A stretch of DNA of 64,000 nt from Stegostoma tigrinum (taxonomy: Eukaryota): assembly GCF_030684315.1 (NCBI RefSeq), contig NC_081367.1, positions 18,148,792 through 18,212,791 of the forward strand, read 5' to 3'. Below are positions 7,515 through 58,920 of the stretch, in pieces. The notes beneath the pieces are model-generated. The model was given only the letters and a program-made list of their open reading frames with translations. It was not told the DNA's origin and did no database searches. Position 1 is the first letter of the stretch, and each line of letters starts with the position of its first letter. Both the position numbers and the translations under genes were made by a program.

Positions 7515-7697
7515 TAAAAAAAAGAACTGCAGATGCTGTAAATCAGAATCAAAAATAGACAGTGTTGGAAAAGCTCAGCAGGTCTGGCAGCATCTGTGGA
7601 GAGAAATCAGAGTTAACATTTTGGATCAAGTGACTTTTCCTCAGAACTCAACACTGAGGAGGGGTCACTTGACTTGAAGCATCAATTCTGATTTCTC
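7515..7697. mobile_element. Old PLE-derived hairpin mini-element ('family C')
   Basis: AGAACTGCAGATGCTG..CTCAGCAGGTCTGGCAGCATCTGTGGAGAG arm followed by a short inverted arm with a degenerate hammerhead core (CTGAGGAGGGGTC..GAAGCATC). Confidence 0.6.
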
Positions 7698-12509: not shown

Positions 12510-13915
12510 GATCACTGTACAGACCTTGTGGAGACAAAGCCTTGCCTTTACATTGAGTATACCATTTATCGTGTTGTGTGGCACTATCACTGTGCTAAAT
12601 GGGACAGACTTCAAACAGCTCTGGCAACTCAAGACGGGGCATCCATGAGGTGCAGTGAGCCATCAACAGCGGCAAAATTGTACTCCAGCACAATCTGCAA
12701 CCTCATTGCTCAGCATCTCCTTCACTCAACCATTACCATCAAGCCAAAGGATCAAACCTGGTTCGCCAGAGAGTGCAGGAGGGCATGTCAGGAGGAGCGC
12801 CAGGCATACTTAAAAAAACAAGGTGACTGTCTGGTGTAGCTACAAAACAGGTCTATTTGCATGTCAGTTAGTTAGAACAGCAAGCGATAGATAGAGTTAT
12901 GTGATCCCACAATCAATGGATCAGATGTAAACTCTGCAGTCTGCCACATCCAGTTGTGAATCGCGGTGAACAATTAAACAACTCACTGGAGGAGAAGGCT
13001 CCAGAAATATCCCCATCCTCAATGATGGAACAGCCCAATATATCAGTGCAAACAAAAAGGCTGAAGCATTCACAGTAATCTTCAGCCAGAATTGCTGAGT
13101 AGATGAACCACCTTGAACTCCTCCAATGGCCTCCAGCATTGCAGATACCAGTCTTCAGCCTATTTGATTCACTCCGCACAAAATCAAGAAACAGTTGGAG
13201 GCGCTGGATACAGCAAAGGCTATGGCCCTGACAAAATTGTGACAATAGTACTGCAGAGTTGTGCTCCAGAACTTGTCATTCCCCTAACCAAGTTCTTCCA
13301 GTACGGCTACAACACTGCCATCTACCCAAAAATGTGGAAATTTGTCTAGGTCTGTGCTGTACACAAAAAGCAGGACAAATCCAATCTGGCCAATTACTGC
13401 TCCATCACAGTCTACTCTCGATCATCAGTAAAGCGATGGAAGGTGTCATCAGCAGTGCTATCAAGCAGCAACTGCTCAGCAATAACCTGCTCAGTGATAA
13501 TGGGAACTGCAGATGCTGGAGAATCCAAGATAATAAAGTGTGAAGCTGGATGAACACAGCAGGCCAAGCAGCATCTCAGGAGCACAAAAGCTGACGTTTC
13601 GGGCCTAGACCCTTCATAAAGGGTCTAGGCCCGAAACGTCAGCCTTTGTGCTCCTGAGATGCTGCTTGGCCTGCTGTGTTCATCCAGCTTCACACTTTAT
13701 TAACCTGCTCAGTGATGCCCAGTTTGGGTGCTGCCAGGACCACTCCGCTCCTGACCTCATTACAGCCTTAGTTCAAACATGGACAAAAGAGCTGAATTCC
13801 AGATGTGAGGTGAGAGTGACAGCCCTTGACATCAAGGTCACATTTGACCAAGAGTGGTATCAAGGACCCCTACCAAAACTGGAATCAATGGGAATCAGAG
13901 GCAAACTCTCCATTG
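12510..13915 (+). mobile_element. Non-LTR retrotransposon ORF2 fragment (CR1/L2/Jockey supergroup), interrupted by a PLE mini-element
   Basis: SKGYGPDKI..VLQSCAPELVIPLTKFFQ and LLSDAQFG..QDHSAPDLITALVQTWTKEL...TALDIKVTFD are RT domain 1-3 motifs; ends in a 17-bp tandem duplication (13898-13937). Confidence 0.8.
13497..13700. mobile_element. Palindromic PLE mini-element (family A) with TSD
   Basis: ~120-nt minus arm plus ~80-nt plus arm; TAACCTGCTCAGTGAT duplicated at 13483-13498 and 13701-13716; the host LINE frame resumes after it. Confidence 0.9.
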
Positions 13916-13939: not shown

Positions 13940-15640
13940 TTTCCAAAGTTGCAGGCTTGTATGACAGAAAAAAAAAATCTCCTCACCTTTGTCCTAAAAG
14001 AATGATTCCTAATCTTAAAACAGTACCTCTAGGTTTGGACTGTCCAATAAGGAAAAAAAAAATCATCCATTTTACATTCACTTTGGCAGGATCTTAACTT
14101 CTCCACTCCAGTGGAAATACATCCAGTCTGTTTAACCTTTCCTCTTTCCTCTTAAGACAATCCACTTTTTTTGGGTATCAATCTAGTGAACCTTCTCTGA
14201 ACTGTCTGCAATGTGTTTCAATCCTTCCTTCAGTCAGCAGAACAAAACCCCACACAACATTCAACATGTGGTCTTACCAATGGCCTGTGTAAATGAAGTG
14301 CAACCATTTTATTTTTATATTCAATATTTTATATTCCCTTTCTTTCAGAATAAGTGGTCACATATCCCATTAGCCTCCTTGTTGACATGCTGTACCTGCA
14401 TACTAATGTTATTTTTAATTACGCATTGAAACACCTGAATTCCTCTGCAGAGATATTAGGAACTGCAGATGCTGGAGAATTTGAGATAACAAGGTGTAAA
14501 GCTGAATGAAGACAGCAGGCCAAGCAGCATCAGAGGAGCAGGAAGGCTGATGTTTTGGGCCGAAACCCTTCTTCAGAAAAACGGTTTGAAGAAGGGTCTA
14601 GGCCCATAACATCAGCCTTCCTGCTCCTCTGATGCTGCTTGGCCTGCTGTGTTCATCCAGCTCTACACCTTGAATTCCTCTGCACCTCAATTGCTGCAGC
14701 TGTTCTTCATTTACATAATAATCTGTTTTTTTATTCTTCCTTCCAAAATAAATAACTTCACATTTTCCCATATTATACTCACTTCTTTTTACCCACTCCC
14801 TCAACCTATCTATATCCTTATGTAAATTCCTTTCGACTTCTTCAAAACATACTTTTCTACCTGTCCTCATGTCAGTTCCAAATTTAGATGCCATGTCAAA
14901 CTAAGTCATTGATGTAAATTGTAAAAAGATGAGTTGCTTTCTCAGACCCCACTCAATTAGACCAAGACCCATTTAGGCATTCTCTCTGTTTGCTGGCAGC
15001 TAGCCAATCTCCCATCCATGCAAAATCACAAAGAACTTAATTTTGGCACAGATTATCATTTCCAAAACCGCTCGAGCGTTCTAGTAAATTGTTTGTTTCC
15101 ACCACTTCTATGTTTACCATAACAAATATCTCTTCCATCTTTCTTTTCTTCCCTCTATTTCCTGAGCACCTTGTACTCTGCATTATTTGATATGCAGTCC
15201 TGCTGTTTTTAGATTCAGGTCTTTGTTGTTGCCTCAACATTATATTACACATATCTATTTCTGCTTGCAGCTGACCAGTTTTACTTGCAACACTTTGCAC
15301 ACTCACATACATGCATAGTGAACCCGAATTAGATTTTACTGTGCTTCCTTTCAGCCTCATTGACAAAATTTCTTCCTGTGATGCTATCTGTTTCTTTCAA
15401 TTCTTTATGCTCCTTATTTTTTCTTTCCAATGCCACGTTTTGGTATCTATCTTCTTGCCAGTTTTATCTAAACTCTCTCTTATAGCTTTAGCGAACTGCC
15501 CACAGGCAAGCAGGTGTCTGCCCTGTGTTTCATTCAACCCATCTAGTTTGTACAGATCCCAGTTCCTCAGAACCAATCTCAATGTTCCATGATTCAAAAA
15601 AATTTCACTTTATACCGTCTCTCCAGCTATATATTTACCT
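13940..15640 (-). mobile_element. Fragmented CR1 LINE (ORF1 esterase-like and ORF2 RT pieces)
   Basis: SKFGTD..RNLHKDIDRLREWVK..YNMGKCEVIYFGRKN (CR1 RT C-terminus) and WDLYKLDGLN (ORF1 LYxxDGLH-like motif). Confidence 0.7.
14450..14670. mobile_element. Palindromic PLE mini-element (family B) with TSD
   Basis: Inverted arms around 14580-14586; TGAATTCCTCTGCA at 14436-14449 and 14671-14684. Confidence 0.88.
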
Positions 15641-23466: not shown

Positions 23467-25341
23467 TTTTCTCCCCTTTGGTCCAGGAACTCGCTACCTA
23501 CGTCCGTGACACCACCCATGCCCTCCACCTCCTCCAGGAGTTCCAATTCCCTGGCCCCCAACACCTCATTTTCACCATGGACGTCCAGTCCCTATACACC
23601 TGTATTCCGCATGCAGATGGCCTCAAGGCCCTCCGCTACTTCCTGTCCCGCAGGCCCAACCAGTCCCCTCCACCGACACCCTCATCCGCCTAGCCGAACT
23701 CGTCCTGACCCTCAACAACTTCTCTTTCGATTCCTCCCACTTCCTACAGAGGAAGGGGGTGGCCATGGGCACCCGCATGGGCCCCAGCTATGCCTGCCTC
23801 TTTGTAGGTAACGTGGAACAGTCCCTTTTCTGCACCTACAAAGGCCCCAAACCCCACCTCCTCCTCCATTACATTGATGACTGTATCAGCGCCGCCTCTT
23901 GCTCCCCAGAGGAGCTCGAACAGTTCATCCACTTCACCAACACCTTCCACCCCAACCTTCAGTTCACCTGGGCCATCTCCAGCACATCCCTCACCATCCT
24001 GGAACTCTCAGTCTCCATCTCAGGCAACCAGCTTGTAACTGATGTCCATTTCAATCCCACTGACTCCCACAGCTACCTAGAATACACCTCCTCCCACCCA
24101 CCCTCCTGCAAAAATTCCATCCCCTATTCCCAATTCCTCCGCCTCTGCCGCATCTGCTCCCACGATGAGGCATTCCACTCCCGCACATCCCAGATGTCCA
24201 AGTTCTTCAAGGACCACAACTTTCCCCCCACAGTGGTCGAGAACGCCCTTGACCGCGTCTCCCGCATTGCCCGCAACACATCCCTCACACCCCGCCCCCG
24301 CCATAACTGCCCAAAGAGGATCCCCCTCGTTCTCACACACCACCCCACCAACCTCCGGAAACAACGCATCATCCTCCGACACTTGCGCCATCTACAATCC
24401 GACCCCACCACCCAAGATATTTTTCCATCCCCACCCTTGTCTGCTTTCCGGAGAGACCACTCTCTCCGTGACTCCCTTGTTTGATCCACACTGCCCTCCA
24501 ACCCCACCACACCCGGCACCTTCCCCTGCAACCGCAGGAAATGCTACGCTTGCCCCCACACCTCCTCCCTCACCCCTATCCCAGGCCACAAGATGACTTT
24601 CCATATTAAGCAGAGGTTCACCTGCACATCTGCCAATGTGGTATATTGCATCCATTGTACACGGTGTGTCTTCCTCTACATTGGGGAAACCAAGCGGAGG
24701 CTTGGGGACCGCTTTGCAGAACACCTCCGCTCGGTTCGCAATAAACAACTGCACCTCCCAGTCGCAAACCATTCCCACTCCCATTCTTTAGATGACATGT
24801 CCATCATGGGCCTCCTGCAGTGCCACAATGATGCCACCCGAAGGTTGCAGGAACAGCAACTCATATTCCGCTTGGGAACCCTGCAGCCCAATGGTATCAA
24901 TGTGGACTTCACCAGCTTCAAAATCTCTCCTTCCCCCACTGCATCCCAAAACCAGCCAAGCCTGTCTCCGCATCCCTAGCCTGTTCTTCCTCTCACCCAT
25001 CCCTTCCTCCCACCCCAAGCCGCACCTCCATTTCCTACCTACTAACCTCATCCTACCTCCTTGACCTGTCCGTCTTCCCTGGACTGACCTATCCCCTCCC
25101 CACCTCCCCACCTATACTCTCCTCTCCACCTATCTTCTTTTCTCTCCACCTTGGTTCCGCCTCCCCCTCTCTTCCTATTTATTCCAGAACCCTCACCCCA
25201 TCCCCCTATCTGATGAAGGGTCTAGGCCTGAAACGTCAGCGTTTGTGCTCCTGAGATGCTGCTTGGCCTGCTGTGTTCATCCAGCTTCACACTTTATTAT
25301 CTCGGATTCTCCAGCATCTGCAGTTCCCATTATCACTGTTA
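23467..25341 (+). mobile_element. 5'-truncated Penelope-like retroelement (Neptune-like), RT + GIY-YIG, defective
   Basis: FTMDVQSLYT, GVAMGTRMGPSYACLF, YIDD (RT); CNRRKCxxC linker; NVVYCIHCTRC..YIGETKRRLGDRFAEH (GIY-YIG); frameshifts and a stop; TSD CAACTGAAACA at 23456-23466 and 25342-25352. Confidence 0.93.
25210..25237 (+). ncRNA. Minimal type I hammerhead ribozyme motif in PLE pLTR
   Basis: CTGATGA-A-GGG-tctagg-CCT-GAAAC-GTC (G-U wobble in stem II). Confidence 0.65.
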
Positions 25342-25842: not shown

Positions 25843-25955
25843 AAAACGAAGTTGCTGGAAAACCTCAGAAGGTCTGGCAGCATTTATGAAGGAAAAAGAG
25901 TTAACGTTTCGGGTCCGGAGGCCCTTCCTCAGAACTGTTCTGAAGAAGGGTCAAG
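25843..25955. mobile_element. Truncated family C hairpin PLE derivative
   Basis: GTTAACGTTTCGGGTCCGGAGGCCCTTCCTCAGAAC-TGTTCTGAAGAAGGGTC: inverted hammerhead-core halves. Confidence 0.6.
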
Positions 25956-27099
25956 TGGGATTTAAACCCTGGAGTCCCAGTTTATAGGTAGGGATACTAA
26001 CACTGTACCGCAAGAACCGTTTTGGGTGCCGGGTATCATGACTTATCAGTGTAGGCTTTATGGGAATAATCCAACACCCAGTCAATCAGTTCCCTAATAA
26101 AATCTTTAAAAATGCCCACTAATGTGTCAGTGTGTGTGTGACAGAGAAAGTGCGGTCAGGTTATCTATAGATTCACTTAATTTTTCTTTCCATTTCCGTT
26201 CAACTTTTAATGATTGACATTAATCGACAAACTGACAAATATTGGGCCAACAATCCCCGTTTCCTTTTACTTTAAACAAGTCGAAACATTTCTCGAAAGT
26301 TTAGAAATGTTTATGTATTTGCACGGATAATGGAAGAATCCTTAAATATTTCTATTAGAATATTATCAGGTGATTGTGTCTTTAACGAGGTGGAACAGAA
26401 TGGCGACGATGAGAATCGTTTTGCAGTGGGGCCAGTGCGCTAGGAAGCCTTCGTCCGTTGAAGCAAATTGTTCCACTAAAGGATATAGATTAGAAATGGA
26501 ACGAGATGCACTTGAAACAAGTGAATTGTGTGAAACAGATAGGCCGCGCTCTGATTCCTCAATGAATTTCTGCTACAATGGTCCTGAAAGGTCGGATGTT
26601 GCCCGTCGGTCTTTAGATTCTGTGATGTCGCCAAGGTAATGTACAAAACTGTATTTTCATTTTGGGTATTTACCCACGCGAGCAGGTTGCTTATTTATTA
26701 AAATGGCTATATTAGAAAGAATGTAACCAATTACCTCATAAATCTCCTTTCCAAAATGCACTATATTCAGTAAGAACACTGGAATTTCAGTTAAGGAGAG
26801 AAACAGGTTCACGACTAGACGGTTACTTTTATATTTTAATATTTCCATGCATTTTTTTAAATAGTGTGGTACCCCAAAACATTTCAACTTTCTTTTCCAA
26901 TCTAACTCGTATTTACATAGCTCCTTTATTGCAGGGAACGGTCCCCACACAGTTTGGCACGTCGCATAAATATAGAAATCCCATTCCCCTTTAGGCACAA
27001 TTCCCCTAATCCCCAATCTACAGTCGCAATAATGAGCACTGCTTCACCTTTTCAACACTGTAATGAGTGACCACTTACATCCAGATGGACTTTTTGACA

Positions 27100-27346
27100 G
27101 AGATCACAAAGTGTGGAGCTGGATGAACACGGCAGGCCAGGCAGCATCTTAGGAGCAGGAAAGCTGACGTTTCGGGCCTAGACCCTTCATCAGAAATGAA
27201 GGGTCTAAAAATAAATTTCTGATGAAGGGTCTAGGCCCGAAACGTCAGCTTTCCTGCTCCTAAGATGCTGCCTGGTCTGCCGTGTTCATCCAGTTCTGCA
27301 CCTTGTTATCTCGGATTCCCCAGCATCTGCAGTTCCTACTATCTCA
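27100..27346. mobile_element. Palindromic PLE mini-element (family B) with two intact hammerhead cores
   Basis: Minus-strand core 27166-27193, plus-strand core 27219-27246; extra partial ATGAAGGGTCTA in the loop; degenerate TSD GACTTTTTGACA / GACTTTATAACA. Confidence 0.88.
27219..27246 (+). ncRNA. Minimal type I hammerhead ribozyme motif
   Basis: CTGATGA-A-GGG-tctagg-CCC-GAAAC-GTC: conserved CUGAUGA and GAAA boxes, 3-bp stem II, palindromic ACGT stem III, GUC cleavage triplet. Confidence 0.72.
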
Positions 27347-27605
27347 GACTTTATAACATTCGCTTTTAAAATAGAAAGAAAAGCAGCATCTGAGAAAGAG
27401 CAGCTGGGATCACGGTGCAATTCCGGCCATTGTGCATCAACCCAAGAGACCCCACAACAAATCAATTCCTCAAACAGGACAGAAGCTCCTGGCAAGTGTC
27501 AGCGGTTCAGGCATCCTGTCTGGAGGGAGGGAGAGAGAGAGAGAGAAAGTAAATTTGTCAGATCACTGTTCGGTTTTTGCTTCTATTCAGTTCTTTTTCA
27601 TTTCA

Positions 27606-29021
27606 GAGATAATGGGAACTGCAGATGCTGGAGAATCCAAGATAATAAAGTGTGAAGCTGGATGAACACAGCAGGCCAAGCAGCATCTCAGGAGCACAAA
27701 AGCTGACGTTTCGGGCCTAGACCCTTCATCAGAGAGGGCGATGGGGTGAGGGTTCTGGAATAAATAGAGAGAGCGAGGGAGGCGGACCAAAGATGGAGAG
27801 AAGATAGGTGGAGAGGAGAGTATAGGTGGGGAGGTAGGGATGGGATAGGTCAGTCTAGGGAAGACAGACAGGTCAAGGAGGTGGGATGAGGTTAGTAGGT
27901 AGGAAATGGAGGTGCGGCTTGGGGTGGGAGGAAGGGATGGGTGAGAGGAAGAACAGGTTAGGGATGCGGAGACAGGCTGGGCTGGTTTTGGGATGCAGTG
28001 AGGAGAGGGGATGAACTGGGATGGTTTTGGGATGCAGTGGGGGAAGGGGAGATTTTGAAGCTGGTGAAGTCCACATTGATACCATTGGGCTGCAGGATTC
28101 CAAAGCGGAATATGAATTGCTGTTCCTGCAACCTTCGGCGGCATCATCGTGGCACTGCAGGAGGCCCATGATGGCACTTGCCCCCACACCTCCTCCCTCA
28201 CCCCTATCCCAGGCCCCAAGATTACTTTCCATATTAAGGAGAGGTTCACCTGCACATCTGCCAATGTGGTAGTGGTGCCAATGTGGTATACTGTATCCAT
28301 TGTACCCGGTGTGGCTTCCTCTACATTGGGGAAACCAAGCGGAGGCTTGGGGACGGCTTTGCAGAACACCTCCGCTCGGTACGCATCAAACAACTGCACC
28401 TCCTAGTCGCAAACCTTTTTAACTCCCCCTTCCCATTCTTTAGATGACATGTCCATCATGGGCCTCCTGCTGTGCCACAATGATGCCACCTGAAGGTTGC
28501 AGGAACAGCAACTCATATTCTGCTTGGGAACCCCGCAGCCCCATGGTATCAATGTGGACTTCACCAGCTTCAAAATCTCTCCTTCCCCCACTGCATCCCA
28601 AAACCAGCCCAGTTCTTGCCCTCCTCCCACTGCATCACTAAACCAGCCCAGCTCTTCTCCTCCCCCCACTGCATCCCAAAACCAGCCCAGCCTGTCTCTG
28701 TCTCCCTAACCTGTTCTTCCTCTCACCCATCCCTTCCTCCCAACTCAAGCCGCACCTCCATTTCTTACCTACTAACCTCATCCCACCTCCTTGTCCTGTC
28801 CGTCTTCCCTGGACTGACCTATCCCCTCCCCACCTATACTCTCCTCTCCACCTATCTTCTTTTCTCTCCATCTTCGGTCCGCCTCCCCCTCTCTCCCTAT
28901 TTATTCCAGAACTCTCACCCCATCCCCCTCTGTGATGAAGGGTCTAGGCCGGAAACGTCAGCTTTTGTGCTCCTGAGATGCTGCTTGGCCTGCTGTGTTC
29001 ATCCAGCCTCACACTTTATTA
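27606..29021. mobile_element. Head-to-head inverted Penelope-like element (minus arm 27606-28174, plus arm 28175-29021)
   Basis: Both arms end in the pLTR; GIY-YIG remnant in the plus arm; intact minus-strand hammerhead core 27705-27732; TSD TCTTTTTCATTTCA at 27592-27605 and 29022-29035. Confidence 0.92.
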
Positions 29022-30126: not shown

Positions 30127-30306
30127 TTTTTGCAGAAACTCAGCAGGTCTGGCAGCATCAGAGGAAAGAAAAAAGGCTCTCTGGACTGAAACTTGAACTC
30201 TGTTTCTCTCTCCACAGATGCTGCCAGACCTGCTGAGTTTCTGCGTCAGTTTCTGCTTTTGTTCTTCTTTCAGATCCCCAGCAACCGCCGTTCTTTGTTT
30301 TATCTC
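30127..30306. mobile_element. Palindromic family C PLE derivative
   Basis: GCAGAAACTCAGCAGGTCTGGCAGCATC ... GATGCTGCCAGACCTGCTGAGTTTCTGC inverted pair with a longer right arm. Confidence 0.7.
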
Positions 30307-30491
30307 AGATATTTCTGACTTGGCGATGCTGAGACTTTTTTTTGTAGTTCGGTACATATTTATCTCTTGCGAAGAAGAGTTGATTTTCAGAGGGGATGTG
30401 GTTATCAGAGTGATTTCTTTCTGGGCAATATCTGAATCAGACAAAATGCGAATCGGCCCAGTGAGTTCAGAATAGGGCTGGGTTCTAACTT

Positions 30492-32281
30492 GTGATAAGG
30501 GGAACTGCAGATGCTGGAGAATCCAAGATACTAAAATGTGAGGCTGGATAAACACAGCAGGCCCAGCAGCATCTCAGGAGCACAAAAGCTGACATTTCGG
30601 GCCTAGACCCTTCATCAGAGTGGGGGATGGGGTGAGGGTTCTGGATAAATAGGGAGAGAGGGGGAGGCGGACCGAAGATGGAGAGAAAAGAAGATAGGTG
30701 GGGAGGAGAGGACAGGTGGGGAGGTAGGGAGGGGATAGGTCAGTTCAGGGAAGACGGACAGGTCAAGGAGGTGGGATGAGGTTAGTAGGTAGATGGGGGT
30801 GCGGCTTGGGGTGGGAGGAGGGGATGGGTGAGAGGAAGAACAGGTTAGGGAGGCAGAGACTGGTTGGACTGGTTTTGGGATGCAGTGGGTGGAGGGGAAG
30901 AGCTGGGCTGGTTGTGTGGTGCAGTGGGGGGAGGTGACGAACTGGGCTGGTTTTGGGATGCGGTGGGGGAAGGGGAGATTTTGAAGCTGGTGAAGTCCAC
31001 ATTGATACCATTGGGCTGCAGGGTTCCCAAGTTCTTCAAGGACCGCAACTTTCTCCCCACAGTGGTCAAGAACGCCCTTGACCGCGCCTCCCGCATTTCC
31101 CGCAACACATCCCTCACACCCCGCCCCCGCCACAACCGCCCAAAGAGGATCCCCCTCGTTCTCACACACCACCCCACCAACCTCCGGATACAACGCATCA
31201 TCCTCCGACACTTCCGCCATCTACAATCCGACGCCACCACCCAAGACATTTTCCCATCCCCACCCCTGTCTGCTTTCCGGAGAGACCACTCTCTCCGTGA
31301 CTCCCTTGTTCGCTCCACACTGCCCTCCAACCCCACCACACCCAGCACCTTCCCCTGCAACCGCAGGAAATGCTACACTTGCCCCCACACCTCCTCCCTC
31401 ACCCCTATCCCAGGCCCCATGATGACTTTCCACATTAAGCAGAGGTTCACCTGCACATCTGCCAATGTGGTATACTGCATCCACTGTACCCGGTGTGGCT
31501 TCCTCTACATTGGGGAAACCAAGCGGAGGCTTGGGGACCGCTTTGCAGAACACCTCCGCTCGGTTCGCAATAAACAACTGCACCTCCCAATCGCAAACCA
31601 TTTCCACTCCCCCTCCCATTCTTTAGATGACATGTCCATCATGGGGCTCCTGCAGTGCCACAATGATGCCACCCGAAGGTTGCAGGAACAGCAACTCATA
31701 TTCCGCTTGGGAACCCTGCAGTCCAATGGTATCAATGTGGACTTCACCAGCTTCAAAATCTCCCCTTCCCCCACCGCATCCCAAAACCAGCCCAGTTCAT
31801 CCCCTCCCCGCAATGCACCACACATACAGCCCAGCTCTTCCCCTCCACCCACTGCATCCCAAAACCAGTCCAACCAGTCTCTGCCTCCCTAACCTATTCT
31901 TCCTCTCACCCATCCCTTCCTTCCACCCCAAGCCGCACCTTCATCTCCTACCTACTAACCTCATCCCACCTCCTTGAACTGACCGTCTTCCCTGGACTGA
32001 CCTATCCCCTCCCTACCTCACCACCTATACTCGCCTCCCCACCTATCTTCTTTTCTCTCCATCTTCGGTCCGCCTCCCCCTCTCTCCCTATTTATCCCAG
32101 AACCCTCACCCCATCCCCCTCTCTGATGAAGGGTCTAGGCCCGGAACGTCAGCTTTTGTGCTCCTGAGATGCTGCTGGGCCTGCTGTGTTCATCCAGCCT
32201 CACATTTTATTATCTTGAGCTTTTGTGCTCCTGAGATGCTGCTGGGCCTGCTGTGTTCATCCAGCCTCACATTTTATTATC
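30492..32281. mobile_element. Head-to-head inverted Penelope-like element (minus arm 30492-31031, plus arm 31027-32217, terminal duplication 32218-32281)
   Basis: Open plus-arm frame covering RT C-terminal region, Cys linker and GIY-YIG (within ORF 30864-31892); CCAAG microhomology at the inversion junction; TSD CTGGGTTCTAACTT at 30478-30491 and 32282-32295. Confidence 0.93.
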
Positions 32282-32319
32282 CTGGGTTCTAACTTTACCA
32301 TTTTCCAGATGTGCAGTCC

Positions 32320-33960: not shown

Positions 33961-34160
33961 TACAAAACGGCAATTGCTCGGAAAACTCAGCAGGTCTGGC
34001 AGCATCTGTGGAGAGAAAGTAGACTTAACTTTTATGGTTCAGTCACCCTTCTCAGTGCCCCTTCTTTAGAATGATTGAGTTCTGACCTGCTGAGTTTTCC
34101 TAGCAGTTTCATTTTTTTGTTTCTGAATTCCAGCATCCGTAGTTCTTCTGGTTTTTTTAG
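33961..34160. mobile_element. Palindromic family C PLE derivative (old)
   Basis: AAAACTCAGCAGGTC ... GACCTGCTGAGTTTT inverted pair plus a tail on the right arm. Confidence 0.65.
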
Positions 34161-39100: not shown

Positions 39101-40077
39101 CAGACTCTTGCTGTGATTTGTGATCTGATTGATGCCATTTCACTCATCTGGATCAGAGCACTTGACCTCTTCCATCTGTCCACAAACATCCTTTTCATTG
39201 TCTGGGGTTTCTGGTAATTCATGACCTGATTGAAAATCACATTTAAGTGAGGATGTGGTTTTGGGTTGAACATATTAAGAGCCATCCAGGCATCCTTGTA
39301 AGGCATGCATGGTGACTGCTATGAATAGCACATTACAAGGTCAGCAAAAGGTATTCAGAAGTCTTTGACCTTGATCTGTGCACTCATGCTGTATCAGCCT
39401 GTACAGGACCCCAGAACTGTTCAAGCACCAGGGAATTGGGTTTGATCTTCTACCTTCCCCAAAACCATCACTGCTTTTGAAGACTCATACCAACTGTCTC
39501 CCACTGGTTGATATTAGGCCTGGCTAGGACTTCATGTGTCACGTGCAACAGAGTTCCCATTTGGTGTAACTCTAGCCGCTATGGTATAACTGAATCACAA
39601 AACTGTTTAGTTGATGGTCACTGTATGCTATGTGTAGTTGTCAGAACAGCAAACAGGAGGAAAGAGTGTCTTTGGTAGAAAGAGGCCTCTAGGGTAGAAG
39701 AATCAGACAGAAAAGGATTCCCACAACTAGATACAAATCATTAGATGCTGGAGCAGATGTAGGCCATTCATCACATCATGTCTGCTCTTCCAATCAATGA
39801 GATTATGGCTAATTGGATGACCTTCAACTTCACTTTCTGCTTTTTCCCTATAACTTTTGATTGGCATTATTCCCTGTAAATATAGTGTATTCCATGCTTA
39901 ACCTTGATTTTTCTTCATGTTTGTAATGACCGGTGATGCCAGTGGAATAAAGAATCCCTGCTTTATGATCTTCAGGCAGTTCACGTACTCAAAATTCATG
40001 TTTCAAGCAGTTGCTATGTGTATAAATTTGTACCCTGGAGAAAGGGCAATGTTCTGCAGAATGAGAGATGAGAGATC

Positions 40078-40289
40078 AGAGATAATGGGAACTGCAGATG
40101 CTGGAGAATCCGAGATAACAAAGTGTGGAGCTGAATGAACACAGCAGGCCAAGCAGCATCTCAGGATCACAAAAGCTGACATTTTGAGCCTAGGCCCTTC
40201 CTCAGGGTCTAGGCCCGAAAGATCAGCTTTTGTGCTCCTGAGATGCTGCTTGGCTTGCTGTGTTCATCCAGCTCCAAACTTTGTTATCT
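40078..40289. mobile_element. Palindromic PLE mini-element (family A) with TSD
   Basis: Arms meet at ~40200; ATGTTCTGCAGAATG (40049-40063) / ATGTTCTGGAGAATG (40290-40304); AGAGAT stutter between the left TSD and the element. Confidence 0.85.
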
Positions 40290-41666: not shown

Positions 41667-41906
41667 AGAGATAGTAGGAACTGCCGATGCCGAAGAATCT
41701 GAGATAACAAGGTGTAGAGCTGGATGAACACAGCAGGCCAAGCAGCATCAGAGGAGCTGGAAAGCTGATGTTTCGGATCTGGACCCTTCTTCAGAAATTC
41801 TTAATTTTGATTTCTGAAGAAGGGCCCAGACCAGAAACGTCAGCCTTCCTGCTCCCCTGATGCTGCTTGGCCTGCTGTGTTCATCCAGCTCTACACCTTG
41901 TTATCA
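41667..41906. mobile_element. Palindromic PLE mini-element (family B)
   Basis: Inverted arms around an AT loop at 41798-41810; CTGAAGA-type hammerhead cores; degenerate TSD ACAGAAAATTATT / ACGGAAATTTATT. Confidence 0.85.
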
Positions 41907-42419: not shown

Positions 42420-44110
42420 AGAACTAGGAGCAGCAGTCAACTATTTGATCCACTTATGTCTGCCCACTGTTCTAAAAGATCAAAGCTAATCTGGCCCTGA
42501 ACTCAACTCCTCTTTAAAACCAGTTCCTCATAGACCTTGATAATAAAATGTGAGGCTGGATGAACACAGCAGGCCCAGCAGCATCTCAGGAGCATCATAG
42601 ACCTTAACTCCTTGATACTTCAAAAATCTATCTCTTTAAATAATATCATATCCGGCCTGCATAACTCTCTGGGGTGGAAAATTCCAGATATTCATTACCC
42701 TCTGGGAGAGGAAATTTCTTTGCGTCTCAGTTTTAAAAGAATTTCCCCTTTTTCTTTAATTGGTACAAGTTCAAAATTCCTCACTAGTGGAAACATCTTC
42801 TTAACATCACCCTGTTAAAATATTGCCTGTTCTATAAGATCATCCCTCATTCTCCTAAATTTGAATGAATAAAGGCCCAACCCATGTAATTGTTTTTGAC
42901 AAGCTTACACCCTTGATCCCAGAAATCAGCCTAATCAAGCTCCTTTGAGCAGCCTTCAATGGCAATATATGAGAGGCATAGATAGAGTGGATAGTCAGAG
43001 AGTTATTTCCAGGGCATAATTTTGAGGTGATTAGAGGAAGGCATAGGGGAGATATCTGAGGTAGGTTCTTTACACAGAAAGTGGTGGGCATGTGGAGTGT
43101 GCTGCTGGCCTTGGTAGTGGAGTCAGATACTTTAGAGAAGTTTAAGTGACTCTTTGATAGGCACATGGATAATAAAATGTAAGATATGCAGGGTAGTTTG
43201 ACCTTAGTAGGATAATAGGTTGGCACAACATTGTGGGCCGAAGGGCCTGTACTCTGTGTACTGTTCTATGATCTATGATCTTAAACATGGGAGCCAAATT
43301 GCACATGGTGTTCTAGGTGCAGCCTCACTATATCCTGTACAGTTGGGACTATTCCTATTTTTAAATTCCAACTTTCTTAATGACTAGCTTCACCCGCATG
43401 TTAACTTTTTATGTTTCACGAACAGAAACAGCCAGGTCCTCCTGTACAAAACTTTTTTGGAGTCTCTCTCTCCATTCAAGTATTTGCCTTTTGTTTCTTC
43501 CTACCAAAATGCATGACCTCACACAAGCCTGAATTAACCCCTATCTACAAAGTTTTTGCCCACTCACTCAAACTATCTATATCCCTTTGCAGATTCTTTA
43601 CATCCCCATCACAACATGCCCTCCCACCTGTTTTTATTATCATAGGCCAATTTGGATCCATTACTCTTCTCACTCCTCTAAGTTGTTAATATAAATAGTA
43701 AATAATTGAGGTCCTCGGACTGAATCTTGCGACACTTTACTAGTTTTGCCTTTCTGATCTGAAAAAGACTCATCAAGCCCAACTCTCTGCTTTCACTGAG
43801 CTAACCAATCCTCGATCCATGTTAAAACATTATTCTCAATGTCATGAATTGCTAGGTTGTGCAAGTCCTTTTAGATGCTACCTCATTGACTGCCTTCTGG
43901 AAGCCCAAATGTACTACACCTATGAGTTCTGACTTATCAACACTGCTGGTTAAATCCTCAAAGAACTCTAGCAAATTTGTCAAACATGATTTCACTTTCA
44001 CAAAGCTATATTGAATCTGTTTGATTGCAGTAAGCTTGTCTCAATGCCCTGTTATTCCTTCCTTTAAATATTCCAGCGTTTATCCTAATGATGGATGTTA
44101 GGCTAACTGA
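42420..44110 (-). mobile_element. Old CR1 LINE (minus), containing a younger plus-strand CR1 3' end (~42968-43280) and a PLE tail insertion
   Basis: Reverse-strand CR1 RT/3' UTR remnants; nested segment ends GGGCCGAAGGGCCTGTACT..TGTTCTATGATCTATG. Confidence 0.65.
42539..42594 (-). mobile_element. 56-nt PLE terminal fragment with TSD
   Basis: GATAATAAAATGTGAGGCTGGATGAACACAGCAGGCCCAGCAGCATCTCAGGAGCA flanked by TCATAGACCTT (42528-42538, 42595-42605). Confidence 0.85.
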
Positions 44111-53599: not shown

Positions 53600-55590
<1,991 letters not shown>

Positions 55591-58800: not shown

Positions 58801-58920
58801 GGTCTAGGCCCGAAACGTCAGCTTTTGTGCTCCTGAGATGCTGCTGGGCCTGCTGTGTTCATCCAGCCTCACATTTTATTATCTTGGATTCTCCAGCATC
58901 TGCAGTTCCCATTATCACTG
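58801..58920 (+). mobile_element. Short family A PLE 3' fragment
   Basis: GGTCTAGGCCCGAAACGTCAGCTTTTGTGCTCC...CAGTTCCCATTATCACTG. Confidence 0.85.

Follow-up and report, generated by a model that had tools for sequence, protein, structure and literature searches.

The window analysed here, a 64-kb (64,000-nucleotide) stretch of the Stegostoma tigrinum genome, holds at 30478-32295 an insertion with the anatomy of an EN+ Penelope-like element (PLE), namely a pLTR, an inverted 5'-truncated arm, an optional 30-40 bp tail and a TSD (Table 1). TSDs of 10-16 bp were recovered at six of the 11 insertions tested in the window. The forward body of this insertion carries a minimal hammerhead motif in its pLTR and closes on a short tandem duplication, the second copy of which begins at the cut site predicted for that motif.

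Table 1. Features of the Penelope-like insertion, in window coordinates
Feature	Position	Strand	Basis
Left TSD copy, 14 bp	30478..30491	+	Longest string common to both flanks
Inverted left arm: tail (to +99), pLTR, ORF end	30492..31031	-	Inverted repeats, BLAST, alignment
Minimal hammerhead motif in left arm, one change at 15.2	30591..30618	-	BLAST, motif alignment
Forward 5'-truncated body: C-terminal part of RT-EN ORF (to 31892), CX4CX2C linker, GIY-YIG, pLTR ending at +67	31032..32217	+	Translation, Pfam, homologues
Minimal type I hammerhead motif carrying A13G, with cut predicted after 32150	32123..32150	+	Motif comparison, criteria from the available part of PMC4209133
Copy 1, element +1..+67, contiguous with upstream motif	32151..32217	+	Alignment, TRF
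Copy 2, element +1..+64, blunt start at predicted cut site, putative first-synthesised cDNA	32218..32281	+	Alignment, TRF
Right TSD copy, 14 bp	32282..32295	+	Longest string common to both flanks

The element, its hammerhead and the end duplication

The assignment to EN+ PLEs, which encode one ORF that has RT and, at its C terminus, a GIY-YIG endonuclease, draws on a weak Pfam match and on homology. One of three translated fragments was matched by Pfam, with a GIY-YIG hit (E = 0.0006) below the Pfam cut-off, and the homologues of the body ORF comprise 24 RT/GIY-YIG proteins, the best match being a shark protein at 92% identity. The 5'-truncated copy at 31032-32217 lacks the RT core; the RT part is present in a sibling copy at 23510-24484, at 48% to P0002. 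Between RT and EN, a CX2-5CxxC linker is the criterion for the Neptune clade (PMC8557442, available part), and the translation contains CNRRKCYTC, of the form CX4CX2C. Judged from its translation, the element has a Neptune-type linker, and its class rests on this linker, which Nematis also carries. A PDB search with the RT fragment found no relative, and a scan of metagenome contigs for a family motif returned 0 stretches.

The description of a minimal type I hammerhead fits sibling copies at 27704 and 57015, as well as a related family at 27165 and 27247. The sibling motif comprises a CUGAnGA core with an extra base after A9, a 4-bp helix II, G10.1-C11.1 closure, GAAA and UH, and a palindromic CG (15.2-16.2) stands in place of helix III. 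The motif at 32123-32150 departs from this intact core, reading GGAAC against GAAAC in the siblings, an A13G change in the catalytic core. Cutting of the copy 2 template would have been the work of a different motif copy; the A13G at 32123-32150 may be the mark of an uncleavable second template or, equally, a later mutation. Helix I is 2 bp long in the family of the duplicated copy and 4-5 bp long, with compensatory letters, in copies at 25932 and 7611, and because helix I covaries in register across the families in the window, the register of the predicted cut is fixed. Against an active ribozyme stand the shortness of helix I in the family of the duplicated copy, only 2 bp, and the predicted lowest-energy local fold, which is an inactive hairpin. 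The Rfam hammerhead models returned 0 matches at the gathering score across the 64-kb window and, within 32000-32300, no match at E values up to 10. The copies with the 4-5 bp helix I represent another family with hammerhead motifs, in which the triplet is GUU and which occurs at 25860-25960, 7560-7640, 30136-30290 and 33983-34060, and a small extra piece of the hammerhead 5' half lies at 27195-27214, between the arms of a head-to-head insertion.

Position +1 of the element is the first base beyond the GTC at the end of the hammerhead motif: 32151 in the duplicated copy and 27704 (minus strand) in the copy that served as reference in the contig comparison below. An initial sequence-only reading of the locus had claimed a 67-nt terminal duplication inside the TSD, with a second copy starting at the first base 3' of the GUC triplet, and both claims are borne out. 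The 67-nt unit is followed immediately by its second copy, with 64 of 64 bases identical (at one locus in the assembly), and TRF assigns a period of 67 with 100% matches. The junction is blunt: a G precedes copy 2 where the element's own -1 is C, and copy 2 opens with A where the continuation of copy 1 would be G. Copy 1 matches a sibling copy at 58820 over all 67 bases, and both duplicated copies, together with the left arm, carry three subfamily marks common to five of the 14 family copies in the window. The alignment ruled out microhomology at the junction, and splicing was rejected as an origin: the AG at +1/+2 is retained in copy 2, whereas a splice would begin at +3.

The target site at 32282-32290 resembles element +65..+73, just downstream of the RT start (7/9 identical). 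Pairing of this site with element sequence may have helped priming, though the likeness is absent at most other copies. Elsewhere in the window, at 42539-42594, a 56-nt insertion (+9..+64) with an 11-bp TSD belongs to the same subfamily as the duplicated copy.

Element ends in the window and in public contigs

A seed scan of the window gave 28 matches, 22 of them from the two closest families. One of these 22 is cut by the window start, six run on for over 200 nt upstream, and in the remaining 15 the 5' end lies somewhere from -52 to about +18. Eleven of the short 5' ends fall at -19 to -31 and one each at -52, +9, about +18 and +1, the sole +1 end being the duplication copy at 32218 itself. 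With 260 to 40 positions to choose from, at least one of 15 such ends would land on a fixed base with a probability of 0.06-0.32; the window alone therefore proves little on +1. The ends near -30 may mark the transcription start of the RNA. Short head-to-head insertions, with arms starting at -21 to -31 and a tail on one arm only, occur at 13492-13702, 14450-14668, 27100-27348, 40075-40289 and 41667-41905; their arm starts fall just before or within the hammerhead core. A 1.6-kb G-rich low-complexity tract of period 7-8 occupies 53914-55578.

Contigs from four public runs, covering three organisms (A, B and C), were aligned to the reference copy at 27580-27960. Organism A is the same species, represented by 212,641 and 179,900 contigs in two runs (X2 and X4) of one sample, which is possibly the assembled one. 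Organisms B (1639 contigs) and C (52 contigs) gave no +1 row among those listed and are too thin to count either way. Loose 3' ends are concentrated at +65, where X4 has 1490 of them, and at the tail end, with 1028 and 568; the main 5' end is at -29, with 869 loose ends in X4; +1 is absent among the best 24 of 1158 loose-end rows. The dominant 5' breakpoint sits upstream of the cut site by about 30 nt, which makes +1 a minor peak at most.

Joints between element ends were taken from the best 15 of 125 in a table that gives the joint kind and from the best 12 of 333 in a table that does not; these are the best-supported rows, from counts that were capped, rather than a random sample. Rows running from a higher to a lower coordinate were read as same-strand because all 11 opposite-strand rows run from lower to higher. 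Excluding the 11 opposite-strand rows, two skip rows and four joints without a usual 3' end (27734-27695, 27736-27702, 27736-27701 and 27819-27814), six distinct head-to-tail joints are listed, three of which restart exactly at +1 (27704), each after a different 3' end (27603, 27636 and 27651); the others start at 27699, 27733 and 27951. The +1 joints to 27603 and 27636 occur in both runs and that to 27651 in X4 only. At 12.5 per contig, their X4 depths of 93, 46 and 50 translate into roughly 7, 4 and 4 loci, and each joint could stem from one source copy. The deepest is read as blunt because the two letters between its sides match the element's continuation in the loose-end consensus. For best-supported rows such as these, at least three of six starts would coincide on a fixed base with a probability of 3e-4 to 1e-6; if a 3-base window is allowed, the range becomes 7e-3 to 3e-5. 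The junction at 32217/32218 is not itself among the joints listed (best 15 of 125, best 12 of 333).

Flanks at the 3' ends are AT-rich in the contig table and show no consensus. Among the opposite-strand rows are many joints of 27601-27608 to 27638-27642, at 7-31 contigs per row in X4, which place the tail end with the +64..+67 end as tail-to-tail pairs. The joints 27736-27702, 27736-27701 and 27734-27695 would duplicate the whole hammerhead (about -32 to +3/+4, and -30 to +10), and such short tandem duplications could allow dimer folding.

Proposed origin of the end at +1

Taken together, we favor a reading (probability roughly 0.6) in which RT primed internally at +64, ran off an RNA 5' end that was likely made by the hammerhead, and re-initiated at the internal site +67. 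The GIY-YIG endonuclease would nick both strands 14 bp apart, and RT would start at the right nick from +64. After 64 nt it would reach a 5'-OH end left by cleavage after GUC. Re-initiation would follow at +67 on another pLTR, from which RT would copy 1186 nt, passing through an uncut motif. The left nick would prime at the tail site (+99), and the two cDNAs would be joined head to head at 31031/31032. In target-primed reverse transcription, orientation and TSD give the order of synthesis, and on this logic the right-hand piece was synthesised first, as the sequence-only reading had proposed. The same reading had RT copy a short RNA first and then re-prime at or jump to the 3' end of a longer one. 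The jump did not lead to an RNA 3' end: the two pieces both stop at +64/+67, where RT of this family chiefly starts internally. A cut RNA, moreover, need not be short. The forward pieces ending at +64/+67 and the left arm ending at +99 correspond to the two 3'-end pile-ups, matching two internal RT start sites; a start at +64 and a restart at +67 are likely because the piece ends match these pile-ups and because the anole element discussed below also starts internally. Uncut RNA appears to be the common template, given that the 5' ends of most short copies lie some 30 nt upstream of the cut, and cleaved RNA would be a minority template.

Of the ways in which an RNA or cDNA end could arise at +1, hammerhead cleavage is the best candidate. 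An ordinary 5' truncation that happened to land on +1 before re-initiation would sit comfortably with the window, where a hit on the fixed base is not rare by the estimate given above and other copies are cut at +9, about +18 and -19; the contig rows, moreover, are a selected sample. However, three more joints with different partners begin on the identical base, and because exact +1 restarts thus recur in other copies, the coincidence is probably not chance; we regard this explanation as improbable. It is a little less unlikely, though still doubtful, that +1 is a minor transcription start, with RT running off a capped RNA begun at a CA step and re-initiating without any ribozyme cut. The -1/+1 pair is the only CA step between -28 and +12, its context fits five of the six positions of an initiator motif, and a promoter may fire close by, given that most short copies begin near -30. 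A G also stands before +1 at 32217 and at one of the three contig joints, which copying of a cap could explain, but the G at 32217 is the element's own +67, a 3' end seen in other copies (two joint rows), and the deepest +1 contig joint lacks an extra G. Such a start would, in addition, have to coincide with the scissile bond by chance.

The duplication could also have arisen by self-insertion at the DNA level, if the endonuclease nicked an older pLTR at -1/+1, RT primed from +67, and the new cDNA paired without a seam with the homologous strand upstream, so that +1..+67 was doubled. PLEs do insert into or beside their own copies (PMC6765202, PMC11167929, available parts), and every +1 junction visible is a head-to-tail joint. 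The nick preference, however, would need to match the scissile bond, the 3'-end flanks are AT-rich without a consensus, and the subfamily marks shared by both copies and the left arm are as expected for one event; we consider self-insertion quite unlikely. Stalling of RT at an RNA structure is a much weaker contender. The motif does fold into a hairpin with its base at +2 (a 56-nt local fold pairing -28..-23 with -4..+2 at -11.4 kcal/mol), but its z-scores against shuffles are -0.06 and 0.84, a stall would favour +3, and the predicted structural barrier at +1 amounts to 0-0.9 kcal in all five copies (80 nt of context), with stronger barriers near +33 (5-11 kcal), -7 and -16. Least probable of all, in our estimate, is that the assembly is in error or that the DNA was duplicated later through slippage or repair. 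The likeness of the two copies exceeds what the age of the insertion predicts, with 0 differences in 64 nt while the left and right arms differ at 4.1% of non-CpG sites (P = 0.07 from arm divergence, P = 0.035 from private changes). A later duplication, however, would need to start on +1, to end no more than 3 nt from the element end and to be accompanied by one particular change, at +65, bringing copy 1 back to the family base, and an assembly error would not produce the +65 difference.

Under the preferred reading, in which RT ran off a hammerhead-made end, the minimal hammerhead probably cuts RNA in the living animal, as the coincidence of junctions with the predicted cut suggests. Whether cleavage is moreover a regular step of the PLE cycle is a more speculative matter, and we hold the following version to be unlikely: RT would make a short strong-stop cDNA and would normally jump to a matching cut 3' end or travel around a ligated circle. 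The ribozyme would thereby be restored scarlessly and the pLTR generated, and junctions like 32217/32218 would be rare mis-jumps that make the step visible. On a cut RNA, the RT start sites would lie only 64-104 nt from the 5'-OH end.

Significance and comparison with known systems

The element type, the ribozyme class and the idea that the ribozyme processes PLE RNA are already published. A literature search, incomplete in coverage, found no paper that maps PLE insertion junctions to the hammerhead cut, and the available part of PMC8782182 holds no PLE data. The junctions bear on in vivo cutting by the minimal hammerheads of animal PLEs and on the use of the cut RNA as a template; a 2021 paper, in its available part, calls the function of these hammerheads unclear. 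With a very high-copy family that records RNA 5' ends in its junctions, the question becomes one of a base-by-base count on the assembly, and the family motif offers a named substrate for cleavage and template-jump assays.

The motif closely resembles the metazoan PLE minimal hammerheads of Cervera and De la Pena (2014; PMC4209133), which share the type I core in the pLTR, the extra base after A9, the G10.1-C11.1 pair, the palindromic 15.2-16.2 positions, the lack of helix III, the short helix I and the high copy number. The available part of that paper reports low in vitro activity, states that in vivo evidence is absent and, unlike the present comparison, does not map insertion junctions to the cut site. 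Non-LTR retrozymes (PMC7229834; bioRxiv 10.64898/2026.07.22.740005; available parts) likewise form PLE-related tandem units processed by type I hammerheads, but a retrozyme holds a complete hammerhead in each of at least two tandem units, whereas the 67-nt unit begins after the core and contains only the part 3' of the cut. The Pen2a element of Adineta (PMC3846280; overview in PMC8557442) shares the inverted 5'-truncated arm, the TSD and the one-sided tail; no extra head-to-tail piece from a predicted cut site is described in the available parts of these sources.

A functional comparison can be drawn with PAc, a Poseidon element of Anolis carolinensis (Frangieh et al. 2024; PMC11167929), as far as the available part of that study extends. 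The tail of PAc is set by a pair of internal RT start sites that lie downstream of its hammerhead, and, as proposed here, each of the two target strands is cut and extended. PAc belongs to the Poseidon clade, whereas the Stegostoma element has the Neptune-type CX4CX2C linker. Uncut RNA is the dominant template of PAc, hammerhead mutants left in vitro insertion unaffected, and RNA-seq gave no reads that started or stopped at the cut site, which weighs against the preferred reading; in the Stegostoma element, by contrast, genomic junctions fall on the predicted cut site. A precedent for such junctions is found in R2 elements with HDV-like ribozymes and in Perere-3 with twister variants, where the cut site is recorded in genomic 5' junctions (PMC3774820, PMC8501958). 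According to the available parts of PMC3774820, PMC3414825 and PMC8501958, these junctions include tandem duplications of matching length, and the R2 RT jumps from a 5' end to a second RNA in vivo. [quoted passage not shown]
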